Below are positions 5,971 through 12,131 of a stretch of DNA of 64,000 nt, in pieces (position 1 is the stretch's first letter; each line of letters starts with the position of its first letter). The DNA comes from Candidatus Falkowbacteria bacterium (GTDB lineage Bacteria > Patescibacteriota > Patescibacteriia > JACRDY01), in assembly GCA_016218485.1 (NCBI GenBank), contig JACRDY010000059.1, forward strand, positions 11,529 through 75,528, read 5' to 3'. Under the pieces are notes generated by a model that saw nothing but the letters and a program-made list of their open reading frames with translations, did no database searches and was not told the origin of the DNA. The position numbers and the translations under genes are program-made.

Positions 5971-6396
5971 TTATTTCCTGCCCGTGGAGCCGAATTGGCC
6001 AGTGCCGCGCCGCGCTTCGCTCAATTCAGCCGTCTCCGTTAGCTCGGCCAGCGCCACCGGGAAAATGACGAGCTGGGCGATCTTGTCGCCGGTTTCAATA
6101 GTGTAGGCTTCGCTGCCCAGATTGATCAGCTGCACATTATACTCGCCGCGGTAGCCGGCATCATAGACCCCGCCCATGGTGTGCAGGCCCGCGTTTTTGG
6201 GCAGGCTGCTCTTGTCTTTGACCATCGCGGCATAGCCACTGTTAAACTCTAGGGCAAAACCCAGATTAAAAATCCGACGTTCACCGACTCGCAGCGTATA
6301 CTGTTCTCGTGAGTACAGATCTAGACCGACATCGCCCGGGTGGGCGTAGGAGGGGAGTTTTACATCGGGGATGAGTTTTTTGATCAAGACCTTCAT
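5971..6396 (-). CDS. dut: dUTP diphosphatase
   Basis: GDVGLDL, GVYDAGYRGE, RGTGQFGSTG; start placed at the ATG of MKVLIKK because the longer ORF starts inside a repeat. Confidence 0.95.
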   Translation of the reverse strand: MKVLIKKLIPDVKLPSYAHPGDVGLDLYSREQYTLRVGERRIFNLGFALEFNSGYAAMVKDKSSLPKNAGLHTMGGVYDAGYRGEYNVQLINLGSEAYTIETGDKIAQLVIFPVALAELTETAELSEARRGTGQFGSTGRK

Positions 6397-6402
6397 GGAA
6401 AT

Positions 6403-6560
6403 AAGTTCAAAGTTCAAAAGTTATAAAGTTGAAAGTTCAAAGTCCAAAATCCCAAGTTCAAAGTTCAAATCAAGTTCAAAGTTTTAAGTTCAAATGCCAA
6501 ATCAGCGCATTGTTTGAACTTTGTCATTAGGTATTGATTTGAACTTTGGATTTTGAACTT
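6403..6560. repeat. Inverted heptamer-array element (AAGTTCA family)
   Basis: AAGTTCA-like units on the left and TGAACTT units on the right; homologous to 14323-14448 and 45397-45519. Confidence 0.9.
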
Positions 6561-7126
6561 TAGTTATTTTTTGCTTTAATAGTTTTCAGAATGTCCTCAA
6601 TCTGCTGGTGCAGCTGTTCAATCGTGCCGTTGTTGTTAATCGTGAAGTTGGCAGTCTGGCCGGTTTCCAGGATGTGGATTTCCGCTTCGGCTCGTTCATC
6701 CTGCTGGAATTGTTCAAAGGTTTTACTGGTATCATCAACGTTTTCTCCGCGTTTGATGATTCGTTCGTAGCGAATTGGTTGATCAGCGGTTAGGTAAATG
6801 AGGGAGAAGCCGGCGAACCGTCGCAGGTATTTGATGTCCGGTTCACGGCGGACGCCGTCAACGGCGATCAGTTCGGCCGAATCTTTATTGACGTCTTCGG
6901 CAATCACCCGCGCCAGCGTGTCTTGGCCAAAATTTTTACGCAATGTTTGCGACATGTGCTGCATATTATCGCGGACGATCGGCAGGTACAAGCGGCCGAG
7001 GATATCGCGCAGTATGCCGGAAAACCGGTATGACGGCGCGCCGTATTTCTCCTTGAGATACTGGCAGGCGGTGCCTTTGCCACTGGAGATTTCGCCGACA
7101 AAGCCGAGGATGATTTTATTGGCCAT
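6560..7126 (-). CDS. P-loop nucleotide kinase (dephospho-CoA kinase / dNMP kinase-like)
   Basis: GFVGEISSGKGT, VDGVR, and INNNGT at the C-terminus. Confidence 0.75.
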   Translation of the reverse strand: MANKIILGFVGEISSGKGTACQYLKEKYGAPSYRFSGILRDILGRLYLPIVRDNMQHMSQTLRKNFGQDTLARVIAEDVNKDSAELIAVDGVRREPDIKYLRRFAGFSLIYLTADQPIRYERIIKRGENVDDTSKTFEQFQQDERAEAEIHILETGQTANFTINNNGTIEQLHQQIEDILKTIKAKNN

Positions 7127-7381
7127 AGTAGCAAGTTAGAAAGTTATAAAGTTGAAAGTTTAGTTTTTTTAACTTTTCTGCTGGGGGGGTTCCGTTCATA
7201 GCCCTTTGGGCTTGAGTGGATTAGCTCATGAAGACGAGCTGACGATTCCCCTCAACTCCACGCTATATTTTCATCACTACGCACTATTGATAATATTTAA
7301 TCATGTGCTATAGTTTAAATAGAAATGTCAATTTTATACCCCAACAAATCCATCTCTTTTCTAGGCGGGTTTGTTTTTTAG

Positions 7382-7936
7382 TTACTGATTAGCGTAGTGT
7401 TCCATTTCATCATTCAAGAGGACATATTCAACACCCGCCAATTTGAGAATTTCTTTGGAGCGGCCGGCGGCGTGGTAGTCTTTTTCCACCACCACCCGTT
7501 TGATCCCGCAGTTGATGAGCATTTTGGCGCAGGTGTAGCAGGGGAACATTAGGCAGTAGATGGTGGCGCCATCCAGCGCCACGCCGAGTTTAGCCGCCTG
7601 GGTCATGGCATTCTGTTCGGCGTGCGAGGTGCGGATGCAGTGTTGGCTGGTGCTGCCATCGGGGTTGTTGACGGTGTGCATCTCATGACCGACTTCGTCG
7701 CAGTGTAGGCAGCCTTTGGGCGAGCCGACATAGCCGGTGACCAGAATATGTCGGTCGCGCGAGACGCAGCAGCCGGTACGGCCGCGGTCACAGGTACCGC
7801 GGGTGGCGGCGGCGCGGGCAATATTCAGGAAATATTGATCCCAGGTGGGGCGGACGTGGGCCGGAGCCGGTTCATTGGTTTGATTAGTTTGGTTTTGATT
7901 TTGTTCCTCCCAGGAGAGCTGGTTTGACTGGTCCAT
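7382..7936 (-). CDS. dCMP deaminase (ComEB-like)
   Basis: RPTWDQYF, HAEQNA, PCYTC zinc-deaminase motifs. Confidence 0.92.
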   Translation of the reverse strand: MDQSNQLSWEEQNQNQTNQTNEPAPAHVRPTWDQYFLNIARAAATRGTCDRGRTGCCVSRDRHILVTGYVGSPKGCLHCDEVGHEMHTVNNPDGSTSQHCIRTSHAEQNAMTQAAKLGVALDGATIYCLMFPCYTCAKMLINCGIKRVVVEKDYHAAGRSKEILKLAGVEYVLLNDEMEHYANQ

Positions 7937-8071
7937 ATGGCCGTGGTTAAGGAGTTAACAATTTCCTGTATTTTACCAGAGGGAGGAGTGGCAAGGCAAG
8001 AGGTCGGTTAATAACGCCCAAACTGACCTATAATCATTAGGGATAAGCCACATTCAGCAGAATAAAAAGGC

Positions 8072-8216
8072 AGATATTAGAAATTGGAAATTAGATATTG
8101 GGAATTGTCTAAAAGCAACGTTTTCGTTAACCAGGGTTTTAAAACCCTGGTTAACGGATGAGCAGAGTCTTTAATCAGGGTTTTCAAACCCTGGTTAACT
8201 TTCATTTTCCATTTCT
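8072..8216. repeat. MITE-like element with GAAATT(A/G) heptamer ends and an inner TTAACCAGGGTTTTAAAACCCTGGTTAA palindrome
   Basis: Inverted homologue at 62415-62536; the left end recurs at 2481-2513. Confidence 0.75.
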
Positions 8217-8346
8217 GTCTTATTTCGTACATTCGCTTGCCTTCGCCGTAGCGGAGCCCCGCATTTTGCGGGGCTTCGCGCAGGCAAGGAACTCTAGGTC
8301 TCCATTGCCATGTATGATATTTTATATTAAACTCTAGGTAATTACT

Positions 8347-9141
8347 ATGGGTACGGCTAATATAAAAAATATTAAAGTAGCAGCGAAAGCCGGCGGGGAG
8401 GTACTCCGGCAGTATTTCGGTCAGGCTTTAAAAACTACCATTAAAACCGGTCCGGCGGATTTTGTGACCCAGGCGGATCTAGAGTCCGAGGCGGAAATTA
8501 TCAGAATTCTGGAAGCGGCGTTCCCGGACTACAATATTGACTCAGAAGAGCGCGGGCTGATTGATAAGGGTTCGGATTGGACATTTGTCATTGACCCGTT
8601 GGATGGTTCCAATAATTTTGTTTGTGGGATACCAAATTTTGCTGTTAGCATTGCTTTGTTAAAACAAAATACGTTGGAGGTTGGGGTTATTCAAGTGCCA
8701 TTATCCGGTCAGATTTATTGGGCGGCTCGGAATCAGGGTGCTTATGTCGGTGATTTGCCTAATCAGCCGCTCAGGGTGAGTGCGGCTCGGGAAATAAACT
8801 GTTCAACGATTGCCGTGGGTATGGGGTATGATGCTGTTCCTATGCGACAGACTATTTATAATCGGCTGGCCGCGATCCGTTTCCAGCGGGTATTGTCGGG
8901 CTGGTGTTCCACGCTGGAGCACGCGGTTTTGGCGGCGGGCAAGATTGAATTGGCGCTGCAGTACAAGGGCGAGCAGTATGATTTTTTGGCCGGGAAAATT
9001 ATTATGCGGGAAGCCGGTGCGATCATTACCGATTTGGCTGGCCAGCCGGAGAGCAGTGACTTGAACGGCAGTTTCATCGCCGGGAACAGCCGGGAGATGG
9101 TAGAGAAGTTTTTGGCGGGGATGGATTGGCAGGAATTATAG
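8347..9141 (+). CDS. Inositol monophosphatase family protein (SuhB-like)
   Basis: DFVTQAD, SEE, IDPLDGSNNF, YDFLAG motifs. Confidence 0.92.
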   Translation: MGTANIKNIKVAAKAGGEVLRQYFGQALKTTIKTGPADFVTQADLESEAEIIRILEAAFPDYNIDSEERGLIDKGSDWTFVIDPLDGSNNFVCGIPNFAVSIALLKQNTLEVGVIQVPLSGQIYWAARNQGAYVGDLPNQPLRVSAAREINCSTIAVGMGYDAVPMRQTIYNRLAAIRFQRVLSGWCSTLEHAVLAAGKIELALQYKGEQYDFLAGKIIMREAGAIITDLAGQPESSDLNGSFIAGNSREMVEKFLAGMDWQEL

Positions 9142-9611
9142 TTGAAAGTTATAAAGTTGAAAGTTATAAAGTTTTTATAAATCCAGAGATGAGTTTTGAT
9201 ATCTCAGTCGCCAGTTGAATGTACTGTGTGAATTGATCGTTGGGTATATATTTTAATTCTCGGCCAATATAGAGCATTGATCGTACTTCTCCACAGGATC
9301 CTTTGGCGATATAGAGGAAGGCGATGAATTCTTTATTCGTCCGGCGTTCAAACCCTTCAGCGATATTATTCATAATAGAGACTGAAGCTCTTTGAATTTG
9401 ATCACGGAATCCCCAGTCTTTATTATCTCTCATTGATGTGTATATGAGTAAGGATAATATTTGAGCTTTTTGCCAGGCAATAATATCTTCAAATCTTTTA
9501 ATAATCATATACTCACAGTATAAGAATAATTATTAAAAAATATCTAAACTCTTGATTTTTCCCTTTATAATTTGCAACTTTATAACTTTATAACTTTCAA
9601 CTTTATAACTT
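9140..9611. mobile_element. Putative cassette: four-helix gene bracketed by inverted AAGTTGA/AAGTTATA arrays
   Basis: Left array 9140-9173 and reverse-complement array 9576-9611; mobility is inferred. Confidence 0.55.
9164..9508 (-). CDS. Four-helix bundle protein (23S rRNA IVP / Avd-like family)
   Basis: FEDIIAWQKA, DQIQRASVSIMNNIAEGFER, FLYIAKGSCGEVRS; AT-rich relative to its neighbours. Confidence 0.92.
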   Translation of the reverse strand: MIIKRFEDIIAWQKAQILSLLIYTSMRDNKDWGFRDQIQRASVSIMNNIAEGFERRTNKEFIAFLYIAKGSCGEVRSMLYIGRELKYIPNDQFTQYIQLATEISKLISGFIKTL

Positions 9612-9671
9612 TTTTAACTAAAAAACCCCGTGGGCATATCCCACGAGCTTTTTTAAATTTTCAATCCGGAG

Positions 9672-10355
9672 TTAAACCGCCAGCTTGATACTCGGGCCCA
9701 TAGAGGTGCAGAGTACGGCATGTTTGAGGTAGGTGCCTTTAGACGATGAGGGTTTGGCTTTACGTACCGCTTCTAGGAAGGTTTCGGCATTATCCAGCAG
9801 TTTGTCTTGGCCAAAGGAGATTTTGCCGATCAGCTGATGGATGTTGCCGGTATTGTCGCTCTTGAAGGTGATTTTACCTTTTTTTAATTCTGAAATTATT
9901 TTAGCGACGTTCGGGCCGACAGTTTCGTTTTTCGGCGACGGCATCAGGCCGCGAGTGCCAAGGATTTTGGCGATGACGGCGATCTTCGGCATCATGGCCG
10001 GAGTGGCTACCGCCACTGCAAAATCAGTTTTCTCGGTTTTTTTGATTTCATTGATCAGGTCTTCGCCGCCGACCAGGTCAGCGCCGGCTTCCCGCGCGTC
10101 CTTTTCCTTATCAGCTTCCACAAAGGCAGCCACCCGTTTGCTCTTGCCCGTGCCGTGCGGCAGGGTAATGGTGGAGCGGATTTGCTGGTCGCTCTTTTTG
10201 GTATCAATGCCGAGCCGCAGGTGGATTTCCACGCCGGCGTCAAATTTTTCAGTCTTATGGCTGATAATCAGATTCAGCGCTTCGGCCAGGCTGTAGACTT
10301 GGCTGCGGTTAATTTTGGTAGCTAGTTCGTTGTAACGTTTGCCGTGTTTTGGCAT
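9672..10355 (-). CDS. rplA: 50S ribosomal protein L1
   Basis: KFDAGVEIH, LPHGTGK, RGLMPSPK, TSMGPS. Confidence 0.98.
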   Translation of the reverse strand: MPKHGKRYNELATKINRSQVYSLAEALNLIISHKTEKFDAGVEIHLRLGIDTKKSDQQIRSTITLPHGTGKSKRVAAFVEADKEKDAREAGADLVGGEDLINEIKKTEKTDFAVAVATPAMMPKIAVIAKILGTRGLMPSPKNETVGPNVAKIISELKKGKITFKSDNTGNIHQLIGKISFGQDKLLDNAETFLEAVRKAKPSSSKGTYLKHAVLCTSMGPSIKLAV

Positions 10356-10368
10356 AGGTATTTCGTTC

Positions 10369-10406
10369 AGTGGTGCGTGCGTCCGCCGCGGCGGACTCCC
10401 ACGGTT
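10369..10406 (-). promoter_or_regulatory. L1-binding leader upstream of rplA
   Basis: GTGGGAG-stem-ACCAC pattern typical of L1 operators; identical to 10925-10962. Confidence 0.7.
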
Positions 10407-10422
10407 AGTTAGTTGTCAGTTA

Positions 10423-10488
10423 GAAAGTTGAAAGTTATAAAGTTAAAAGTACAAAACTTTCAACTTTATAACTTTATAATTTTAAACT
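10423..10488. repeat. Empty inverted AAGTTGA/AAGTTATA array element
   Basis: Same units as the four-helix flanks; its core is the reverse complement of the core of 10970-11041. Confidence 0.85.
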
Positions 10489-10911
10489 TTATTCCACCAT
10501 AATCCCCATCTGTCGGGCCGTGCCTTCAATAATGCGCATGGCGGCATTGATGTCATGAGCGTTGAGATCAACCATTTTTTTCTCGGCGATCTCTCTCACT
10601 TGAGCGCGGGTGACTTGGCCGACTTTTTCTTGCAGCGGTTTGCCTGAACCTTTGGCTACACCCGCGGCTTTTTTTAAGAGTTCAGCGGCCGGCGGAGTTT
10701 TGAGAATAAAGGTGTAGGTGCGATCCTCGTAGATGGTGATTTCACAGGGAGTAATGTCACCCGGCATTTGCTTGGTGGCTTCATTAAATTTACTGCAGAA
10801 TTCACTGATGTTCACGCCATGCTGGCCGAGCGCCGGGCCGACCGGCGGCGCCGGGTTGGCTTGCGCGCCCGGGATCTGCAGCTTGACGATTGTTTTGATT
10901 TTCTTAGCCAT
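10489..10911 (-). CDS. rplK: 50S ribosomal protein L11
   Basis: [29 protein letters not shown]. Confidence 0.98.
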
Positions 10912-10924
10912 ATACGTTTCGTTA

Positions 10925-10962
10925 AGTGGTGCGTGCGTCCGCCGCGGCGGACTCCCACGGTT
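10925..10962 (-). promoter_or_regulatory. L1-binding leader upstream of rplK
   Basis: 38 bp identical to 10369-10406. Confidence 0.7.
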
Positions 10963-10969
10963 GTTAGTT

Positions 10970-11041
10970 AAAAGTTAGAAAGTTGAAAGTTATAAAGTTG
11001 AAAGTTTTGTACTTTTAACTTTATAACTTTCAACTTGTAAC
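10970..11041. repeat. Empty inverted AAGTTGA/AAGTTATA array element
   Basis: Inverted copy of 10423-10488. Confidence 0.85.
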
Positions 11042-11587
11042 TCAGATTTTTTTTACTTGCAGGAAATCCAGCTCCACCGGTGTCTCGCGGCCGAACATAG
11101 AGACGAGCGCCTTGATCTTGCCGCGGGTTTCATCAATCTCGGAAATTTTTCCTTCAAAGTTTTTGAACGGGCCGTCCACGATGCGGATGGGCTGGCCGAT
11201 AGAGAGGTCAATGGTGTAGGTTGGCTCTTCCACGCCCTTGCGTTTCATGATAGCTTCCACTTCTTTTTTGGACATGGGCGTCGGCACCGTGCCGGAGCTG
11301 GTGAAGCCGGTGACGTTGGGGGTATTGCGCACCACGTACCAGGAATCATCAGTGACGGTCATTTCCACCATGATGTAGCCGGGGAAGATTTTTTCCTCAA
11401 TGACTTTCCGTTTACCATTTTTGATTTTGATCTTTCGCTCAGTCGGAATAACCACGTTAAAAATTTTGTCGTCCATACCCATGGAGACAATTCTGGACTT
11501 GAGGTCTTCCACCACTTTTTCCTCATAGCCGGAGTAGGTGTGAATGACGTACCAGCGGCGGCCGAGCTGTAGTGTTTGTTTTGGCAT
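11042..11587 (-). CDS. nusG: Transcription antitermination factor NusG
   Basis: WYVIHTYSGYE, FPGYI, DGPF, FGRETPVELDF. Confidence 0.98.
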   Translation of the reverse strand: MPKQTLQLGRRWYVIHTYSGYEEKVVEDLKSRIVSMGMDDKIFNVVIPTERKIKIKNGKRKVIEEKIFPGYIMVEMTVTDDSWYVVRNTPNVTGFTSSGTVPTPMSKKEVEAIMKRKGVEEPTYTIDLSIGQPIRIVDGPFKNFEGKISEIDETRGKIKALVSMFGRETPVELDFLQVKKI

Positions 11588-11594
11588 AGTGGAG

Positions 11595-11645
11595 TAGTCC
11601 CTAGTCCTTAGTCCTTAGTCCTTAGTCCTTAGTCCTTAGCTCTTA
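11595..11645. repeat. (TTAGTCC)n heptamer array
   Basis: About 6 units between secE and nusG; reverse complement of the array at 13232-13272. Confidence 0.9.
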
Positions 11646-11831
11646 GCGGTTGATGAGGTATTCAAAGCCAAAGGAAAAGATATAGTCTAGGAGACCCAAA
11701 AAGGCGGCCAACACCAGGCTGATGCCGATCACCAGCGCGGTGTGTTTGGTCGTTTCTTTTTTGGTCGGCCAAGTGACTTTTTTGAGTTCCACCTTGGATT
11801 CTTTGAAATATTCCACGATTTTGTTGGCCAT
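11643..11831 (-). CDS. secE: Preprotein translocase subunit SecE
   Basis: ELKKVTWPT plus a single TM helix; upstream of nusG. Confidence 0.95.
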   Translation of the reverse strand: MANKIVEYFKESKVELKKVTWPTKKETTKHTALVIGISLVLAAFLGLLDYIFSFGFEYLINR

Positions 11832-11845
11832 AGTGTTTAAAATAA

Positions 11846-11945
11846 ATCCAGCACCTTCCAGAATACCCCATCAGCTTGCTGTGGGGGTGAATGGCTGAGA
11901 GAGTATGCCTGCAGTGTGTACTACCCCGACAGGAAGGTGCTGGAT
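11846..11945. repeat. MITE-like element with ATCCAGCACCTTCC terminal inverted repeats
   Basis: Copies at 28771-28831, 31128-31245 and 51177-51237. Confidence 0.85.
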
Positions 11946-12131
11946 TTTAAAACCGCCCGGAGGCGGTATATTCAGTTTCTGTAGGTATTATAGGGGAAAA
12001 TACTGCGGCAGTCAAGGGGATAAGTTTTTGGGATAAGTTTTTGTACAGATAAGTTTTTGTGGTTGACATAAATAATATATTATGATAAAACAAGAAAGGT
12101 TTCCACCCCCATGACAATAAGGAGGCGGGTC

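Follow-up and report, generated by a model that had tools for sequence, protein, structure and literature searches.

The four-helix-bundle gene at positions 9164-9508 of the window (the whole 64,000-nucleotide stretch of Candidatus Falkowbacteria contig JACRDY010000059.1 that was analyzed) lies between two inverted repeat arrays, and on a narrow balance we take this cassette to be a copy of a widespread module of protein plus repeats, in which the protein assists a repeat family and the gene itself relocates. Recognition of the arrays by the encoded protein is well supported from sequence comparison, because one residue of the protein is linked to one base of the repeat, the repeat unit follows the protein clade, and doublets elsewhere in the genome follow the resident protein. 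The protein therefore likely binds the repeats and is also likely to help in spreading the common heptamer hairpins of bacterial genomes.

Anatomy of the cassette

The genome (0.98 Mb in 69 contigs, 91.6% complete) is represented in a groundwater metagenome run, and judging by its size and its relatives it probably belongs to a Patescibacteria-type organism. On the minus strand the region reads nusG, rplK and rplA, followed by a terminator-like hairpin, the cassette and a convergent inositol-monophosphatase (IMPase) gene (Table 1). In a profile search the protein of 9164-9508 scored 113.7 bits against TIGR02436 (cut-off 24) and 116.4 bits against PF05635 (cut-off 33.8). GC content of the gene was 0.35 as compared with 0.50-0.53 for IMPase, rplA and rplK. 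Matches to the PF05635 family were present in 92 of 121 genomes of the class, and no relative was found when viral contigs were searched with this protein as query.

Table 1. Features of the cassette and its surroundings (positions in the window)
Feature	Position	Strand	Remarks
Solo arm, four cores	7132-7160	+	Directly before start codon of kinase gene 6560-7126 (-); partner arm decayed or absent
Inositol-monophosphatase-family gene	8347-9141	+	Convergent neighbour; stop codon is the start of the arm
Downstream (3') arm of four-helix gene	9139-9181	+	TAGTT, then four AAAGT units (7/8 nt); overlaps last codons of the gene
Four-helix-bundle gene (TIGR02436 / PF05635)	9164-9508	-	114 aa; Asn58, Tyr66; C-terminal FIKTL* within downstream arm
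Promoter-like site TAGATA-18-TATACT	9517-9546	-	Between upstream arm and ATG; alone not above chance (4 sites vs 2.4 expected)
Upstream (5') arm of four-helix gene	9576-9620	-	Five AAAGT units and terminal TAGTT; 68 nt before ATG
Terminator-like hairpin after rplA	9621-9655		On both strands; belongs to the host and marks the border of the cassette
Structured leader before rplA (GTGGGAG...ACCAC)	10361-10406	-	Also before rplA in most relatives shown
Gene-less hairpin, AAAGT unit	10408-10490		Between rplK stop and rplA leader; 5-nt apex
Near-identical copy of rplA leader, before rplK	10917-10962	-	
Gene-less hairpin	10962-11043		Between nusG stop and rplK leader; direct duplicate of 10408-10490 with central 17 nt flipped

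The first-pass annotation had described an AT-rich gene bracketed by inverted AAGTTGA-type arrays, and this arrangement is present as claimed, with small corrections. The downstream arm carries AAGT cores at 9146, 9154, 9161 and 9169, and does begin at the IMPase stop codon (TAG, 9139-9141) and reach the last codons of the gene, as had been noted. The upstream arm has ACTT cores over 9577-9608 and ends near 9620 where it abuts the rplA terminator, so that the right end proposed at 9611 fell approximately 9 nt short. Cores in both arms are spaced by 7 or 8 nt. When folded, the cassette formed a closing stem of approximately 30 pairs (z = -7.0), with none of 100 shuffled sequences as good. The word GTTTAGA precedes three of the eight paralogues of the gene in this genome; among 804 genes, 13 have it in their upstream region as compared with 7 in the reverse control, often with TGTGGTA or TGCTATA approximately 18-20 nt further on, and is a possible lineage promoter.

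Three gene-less elements with the same units had been reported nearby. Those at 10423 and 10970 are self-inverted hairpins (z = -6.5 and -7.9, respectively), but the one at 7133-7178 is a solo arm (z = -0.84). The two hairpins had also been read as inverted copies around rplK; they do share 51 identical nt in inverted orientation, but do not constitute one element bracketing that gene. They also align directly over 115 columns, including the duplicated leader, with the flipped centre as the main difference, and a flip between the arms after duplication would explain both the direct and the 51-nt inverted identity. The leader at 10361-10406 is one which we take to be L1-operator-like; hairpin and leader are duplicated before rplK and rplA here, while the family relatives shown carry the leader only before rplA. 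Two further arrays were observed in the window. At 8076-8205 an ATTAGAA/ATTGGAA array precedes a GTTAACCAGGGTTTT...AAACCCTGGTTAAC palindrome that is present twice and also occurs in the loop of GAAATT-type hairpins on contigs C54 and C57, and at 6403-6494 there is a long mixed array of AAGTTCA units, the family of another paralogue, with AAAGTTAT/AAAGTTG units inserted.

Paralogues and repeats across the genome

Eight genes of the four-helix family were found in the genome, and all eight are bracketed by inverted arrays, each with its own unit; in the eighth the upstream arm lies inside a long 5' extension of the ORF. When inverted flanks were scored, seven of the eight reached or exceeded the 99th percentile set by 775 other called genes. 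Both flanks were periodic in 7/8 paralogues as compared with 66/775 other genes (p = 3e-7), the latter being a control set of crude gene calls biased to host-like genes. Four-helix genes are thus repeat-flanked far more often than other genes, as the annotation had predicted.

Periodic arrays numbered 402 genome-wide, as compared with 13-20 in three shuffles, and 347 of them lay outside ORF interiors. AAAGT arrays numbered 55, against 0-3 in 20 block shuffles. There were at least 51 gene-less hairpins and 51-52 close inverted array pairs, and in 50 of 52 pairs the left arm was the one richer in purines; in the AAAGT family 26 hairpins were AAGT-first and none had the reverse polarity. Loops were common to gene-less hairpins at different loci, in clusters of 6, 4, 4, 2 and 2, which suggests that these hairpins have been copied as units. 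One member of the six-copy cluster directly precedes its cognate gene. With respect to position, one loop family was found once in sense, four times in antisense and twice between divergent genes, and arrays were not depleted between divergent genes (15/47 vs 122/321). Among unpaired cases the ACTT form was nearer a start in 10/15 and the AAGT form nearer a stop in 7/8.

Two other loci of this genome were also observed. At C9:5700-6400 (L179) inverted CACAGA-type repeats enclose a GxxExxY (PF13366) gene, a parallel case of a gene paired with repeats, with the PF13366 match covering profile positions 20-116 only and the 5' part in another frame. A lone 417-aa reverse transcriptase at C7:10493-11746 (L180, L181) has a long non-coding upstream stretch with a retron-like look and no flanking arrays.

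The repeat unit follows the protein clade

In genome collections the closest 80 relatives of the protein were 58-69% identical, and in a quick tree of 198 family proteins from 222 loci they formed one clade with the query. Clade hosts come from about ten phyla in all, namely Bacteroidota, several Patescibacteria groups, Spirochaetota, Bdellovibrionota, Pseudomonadota, Fidelibacterota, Omnitrophota, Lentisphaerota, Ignavibacteriota and KSB1. Of the 77 clade members whose flanks were usable, 61 had AAGT arrays on both sides of the gene, as compared with 1 of 118 other family members, many of which came from the same genomes as clade members. In a new independent set, 50 of 59 clade members were flanked on both sides. 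These data confirm that the repeat unit follows the protein clade and not the host, and the co-variation of protein clade and repeat unit put forward for testing by the annotation is borne out. Four-fold sites among clade genes are saturated (median identity 0.26).

Within the clade, cognate arms paired better than non-cognate arms (median 37 vs 27). The modal arm has four cores (57/125 arms), and core spacings of 7, 8 and 9 nt are mixed within single arrays. Overlap of the gene end with the arm is typical of the clade: 71 of 143 clade proteins end in LIKTL or FIKTL, and in 56 of 130 cases the first core precedes the stop codon's end. The 77 clade loci represent 52 gene contexts; the gene was co-oriented with both neighbours in 65/72 loci, and the arm-gene-arm build of the query was seen in 51/77 while a reverse array lay upstream in 11/77. 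In a sample of 121 genomes of the class, all seven with a clade gene had at least seven triple-core matches, part of which are the gene's own arms. Fourteen of the 114 genomes without a clade gene also reached that number, so that 14 of the 21 array-rich genomes, including one single-contig genome, lack the gene; one genome without it (G001) has 67 near-identical array matches genome-wide. Arrays therefore outlive the gene or do not need it.

Residue 58 and the base after the core

Residue-base associations were tested in clade members that have five or more units in register (n = 71). The link between residue 58 and the base that follows the core was the best of 5152 tests. The share of C after the core was 0.69 with Asp58 (n = 19) and 0.03 with Asn58 (n = 49); all 19 Asp58 loci had C, and 48 of 49 Asn58 loci did not, for a total of 67 concordant loci out of 68. 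Residue 58 changes 12 times on the best tree, which was built without residues 55-60. Contrasts on well-supported branches numbered three, all of which agree, too few for significance. The new set comprised 66 proteins (86 loci, with 21 hits removed as redundant, distant or short), and four had too few units. The same link was again at the top, this time of 4152 tests, with 17 of 17 Asp58 loci C-rich and 42 of 45 Asn58 loci not C-rich. An association of Tyr/Phe66 with the share of 9-nt units was also replicated (0.23 vs 0.55, not tree-corrected), while residue-base links at positions 63 and 20 did not replicate in the new set. Outside the clade the Asp58/C rule appeared mixed by eye.

The residue-58 rule operates at a distance, in that gene-less repeats track the resident protein. 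In 30 genomes chosen by residue (14 of the 19 Asp loci and 16 Asn loci), at least 20 AAAGTC doublets were found genome-wide in 12 of 14 Asp58 genomes as compared with 1 of 16 Asn58 genomes. The query genome, which has Asn58, contains 147 AAAGTT doublets and a single AAAGTC doublet. An Asp58 genome rich in AAAGTT (G373) was found to hold a second gene with Asn58, as predicted. Genome G388 has an Asn58 gene only, yet 292 AAAGTC doublets; a second, Asp58 gene was predicted there and is not present, and G388 remains an exception. This genome (L117) measures 0.8 Mb and contains very long arrays, with more than 20 units of mixed AAAGTC 9-mers, for example at C4:7159-7343. The resident protein is thus obeyed by the gene-less copies, which the annotation had regarded as non-autonomous derivatives of the cassette. 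That description is nevertheless too narrow, as the gene-less hairpins share loops and appear copied as units, and most array-rich genomes in the class sample have no cognate gene.

Predicted structure

The 114-aa protein was modelled as four helices (pLDDT 97). A fold search matched 2GSC (Xcc0516) with TM 0.90, bAvd 4DWL with TM 0.79 at 11% identity, and also 2RLD (BT_0352). Avd was reached by the fold search alone and not by a sequence search of the PDB. Family membership and the Avd-related fold, both asserted by the annotation, agree with the profile scores and with the fold search. In the predicted structure residue 58 caps helix 3, following a basic loop. Among 198 family proteins, conservation is 91-100% for residues Q37, R40, S44, N48, E51 and E74.

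A four-copy model scored 0.49 against 0.00 for the best control and passed a threshold that 20 of 30 solved pairs and 1 of 23 single chains attain, although resemblance to solved ring homologues may account for this score. Contact agreement between runs was 96% and pLDDT was 86. The modelled interface contains Q37, R40, E51, E74, residues 54-56 and residue 66. In Avd, flipped RNA bases insert into crevices between protomers (bioRxiv 2023.10.23.563531). Judging by the solved homologues, the protein would form a pentamer, and by analogy with Avd it may carry base pockets at the subunit crevices.

Filled, hairpin-only and naive sites

At the rplA site the gene was present in none of six family relatives within the 1.5 kb examined. 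In G001 an upstream-type arm is followed by a Y1 transposase-like gene, and in G004 a downstream-type arm lies at the stop codon of the equivalent IMPase gene, again in convergent orientation. The G001 arm after rplA (41/45 nt identical) was considered as an orthologous remnant, an idea weakened by the 67 near-identical matches throughout that genome. Where the gene would be in G004 (L011:2310-2365), the interval from the rplA terminator to the remaining arm contains a GTCATCCCG...CGGGATGAC palindrome instead. Repeat units at the nusG-rplK and rplK-rplA junctions vary or are absent among relatives, and in several class relatives (loci L020, L030, L031, L033 and L035) a small membrane-protein-like gene, sometimes duplicated, was observed between rplK and rplA.

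The annotation had called for filled and empty alleles at one locus, and filled, hairpin-only and naive sites were all found at one junction of two conserved genes in Brumimicrobium and kin. Among 14 loci holding both flanking genes, four were filled (a full hairpin, the gene and a second copy of the 3' arm), one had a hairpin alone with a homologous loop, one had a short hairpin-like piece, and eight had no array. Four of these eight have spacers of just 15-26 nt, and a 15-nt spacer was seen in a sister genome. The build of the filled alleles, with a reverse array upstream, is the less frequent one in the clade (11/77). Without its gene and one arm, a filled allele would be the same as the hairpin-only allele, which is the difference expected from one crossover between direct arm copies. 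A tree of the allele series did not give the order of gain and loss. A search of the genus Segatella returned an unrelated repeat and no orthologous empty site.

With respect to movement, no target duplication was recognized by eye, and the element ends are ragged, with an outer TAGT/ACTA unit in 9/26 on each side. No moving enzyme was found in the genome, as its two Y1 transposases and its one reverse transcriptase are not array-flanked; the latter is the sole RT match and lies on a contig other than that of the cassette, 2.1 kb away from the nearest paralogue. To our knowledge the four-helix family has no catalytic motif and no nuclease activity. The suggestion that the cassette is an autonomous element thus found no support, there being neither a target duplication in sight nor a catalytic motif. 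Contigs of the groundwater run, which may be the source sample, contained only arm-loop-arm pieces, from other loci or organisms and with sides of 20-26 letters, and no flank-to-flank joint. One joint that "goes back" was considered as evidence of excision or a circle and was not accepted because it is confined to arm letters.

Comparison with known systems

The cassette does not qualify as an rRNA intervening sequence (IVS), a REPIN-RAYT, an Ssn system or a diversity-generating retroelement (DGR). The 23S IVS of Coxiella, with S23p, has its gene in the loop of terminal inverted repeats and, ahead of the ATG, a run of three to four heptamers in tandem (PMC4990558), and the same protein family occurs at scattered rRNA sites in CPR (bioRxiv 2024.02.27.582315). 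The cassette shares the protein family and the gene in the loop of terminal inverted repeats, which form a stem around the ORF as in rRNA IVSs, but lies between rplA and the IMPase gene and not in rRNA. An Rfam search of 6300-12100 gave nothing above the gathering score and only sub-threshold matches to miRNA-like hairpins. In the text examined from these two papers the protein is given no function and is not tied to repeats or to gene-less copies.

In REPIN-RAYT systems a gene has its own repeat group and the copied unit is the hairpin of a gene-less inverted doublet (PMC3116915). The cassette likewise has numerous inverted doublets without a gene, which look copied as whole units and correspond to the gene that it carries. 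Its protein, however, is an all-helical bundle and not a Y1/HUH transposase, its arms are periodic arrays of 4-5 short units and not palindromic REPs, and the gene itself moves between contexts and phyla. NTS-ssnA-NTS is a small gene flanked by its own target repeats, with hundreds of orphan copies and a repeat sequence specific to each homologue (PMC11893778). The cassette resembles it in having a small gene flanked by its own repeats and many orphan copies, but its protein has no GIY-YIG domain, unlike the Ssn GIY-YIG ssDNA nucleases, and the term "helix bundle" does not occur in the main text of that paper.

The cassette protein shares the fold of Avd, a pentamer, and the last codons of the avd gene are part of a functional RNA (bioRxiv 2023.10.23.563531). 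Unlike a DGR, no RT, template or variable repeat was present among the ORFs flanking the cassette gene. The sole profile matched by the 9164-9508 protein was PF05635 and it was scored as PF05635, not as bAvd; the bAvd-like protein at L089, in turn, is without the QxxRxxxSxxxNxxE motif. Two DGR-like loci were observed among the relatives: at L089:1118-2626 the cassette sits between a bAvd-like gene and an RT fragment, and at L108:160-3006 between a long upstream ORF with an Avd-like end and an RT gene. The last codons of the upstream gene run into the 5' arm.

Orphan heptamers such as TAACTGA (Beggiatoaceae) and GGGAATC (Xanthomonas) form intergenic 7-nt arrays, with four units preferred, in inverted pairs and ending just before start codons (PMC4692102, PMC4679880). 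They were described without a protein, while the repeats of the cassette have an associated gene. The cassette anatomy is thus already in print for the Coxiella 23S IVS, and the design of a gene flanked by its own repeats for REPIN-RAYT and NTS-Ssn. In the literature searched (main texts only, few subscription papers) no description of the gene-repeat link was found outside rRNA. What the tests add here is the residue-58 rule, with its replication and its reach to distant repeats, and also the series of alleles. The cyanobacterial STRR is presumably a further orphan heptamer repeat.

Discussion

In the module that we favour, a predicted ring-shaped protein would bind the array with one unit per subunit, and this recognition would maintain and spread gene-less hairpins and let the gene relocate between them. 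As spacings of 7, 8 and 9 nt are mixed in one array, the substrate should be flexible and not a rigid duplex, probably single-stranded or an extruded hairpin. "Gene plus one arm" would be gained or lost by crossover between direct copies of the arm. Copying would most likely be the work of host replication or recombination acting on protein-bound hairpins, or else of a possible unrecognized activity of the invariant Q37/R40/S44/N48/E51/E74 surface. Sites at stops and starts, together with operon orientation, point to an RNA substrate, while loops in both orientations, sites between divergent genes, no G.U bias and a promoter-like site inside the arms point to DNA. We regard with some doubt the bolder proposal that PF05635 proteins do the sequence reading in mobile elements of a new class. 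On this view each subunit of the ring would have one pocket that reads a base, under a simple code relating residue to base, and the protein would itself promote the copying of heptamer hairpins into gene junctions.

Evidence for array recognition fits equally well with a host-recruited regulator similar to TRAP, which we take as its analogue. That the protein is such a regulator, with arrays which spread passively and are kept by selection as its sites, seems unlikely; it would bind the purine-rich arm of a transcript or the array by its own promoter and tune processing, stability or translation, again an unlikely role in our estimate, with slippage and gene conversion as the equally unlikely route of passive spread. 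The location of arrays at stops and starts agrees with it, and the co-orientation of the gene with its neighbours fits an RNA-level role as well. A post-transcriptional regulator has been proposed for the TAACTGA repeats (MacGregor 2015, PMC4679880). However, units at the nusG-rplK and rplK-rplA junctions differ or are absent among relatives, one 1-Mb genome retains eight paralogues with eight units, one loop family occurs in sense, in antisense and between divergent genes, and arrays are not depleted between divergent genes.

Release of the gene from mRNA as an intervening sequence, with RNase III cutting the stem so that the insertion is harmless, the protein bound to the excised RNA and a borrowed RT aiding re-entry, is improbable, and the RNA-excised unit suggested by the annotation gained no support here. 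The predicted stem is strong, cognate arms pair better, and an RNase III-like sequence is present in the genome, as judged by a motif which we presume to be diagnostic. Two relatives, moreover, have an RT gene on one side and a bAvd-like gene or DGR-type target on the other, and the heptamers of the Coxiella 23S IVS are in a stem cut by RNase III in vitro (PMC4990558). No sense-strand G.U bias was observed, however (85 vs 119 in the clade, 101 vs 83 elsewhere and 10 vs 8 in gene-less hairpins), the upstream arm is behind the rplA terminator and upstream of the promoter-like site, and the only RT match lies 2.1 kb from the closest paralogue and is not array-flanked. Least probable is passive descent of gene and arms together with no recognition at all, the repeats being products of slippage. 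Arrays do persist in genomes without a cognate gene and few well-supported independent contrasts at residue 58 exist. Against this, the core is kept although four-fold sites are saturated, residue 58 tracks one base over its 12 changes on the best tree with replication, and distant gene-less arrays follow the residue. Array binding is the sole reading that accounts for one residue tracking one base both beside the gene and genome-wide.

The array-binding protein of our preferred module would join two orphans. One is a very common protein family without an assigned function, and the other is the heptamer repeats of intergenic regions, for which the binding protein had been left as an open question (PMC4679880); the residue-58 rule reduces this idea to a one-mutation experiment. 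If the protein also drives copying, it would represent a third structurally unrelated solution, besides RAYT and Ssn, for repeat persistence. If these proposals are true, bacterial heptamer repeats and ORF-bearing rRNA IVSs would be products of one system, and the family would provide a re-programmable reader of periodic nucleic acids.
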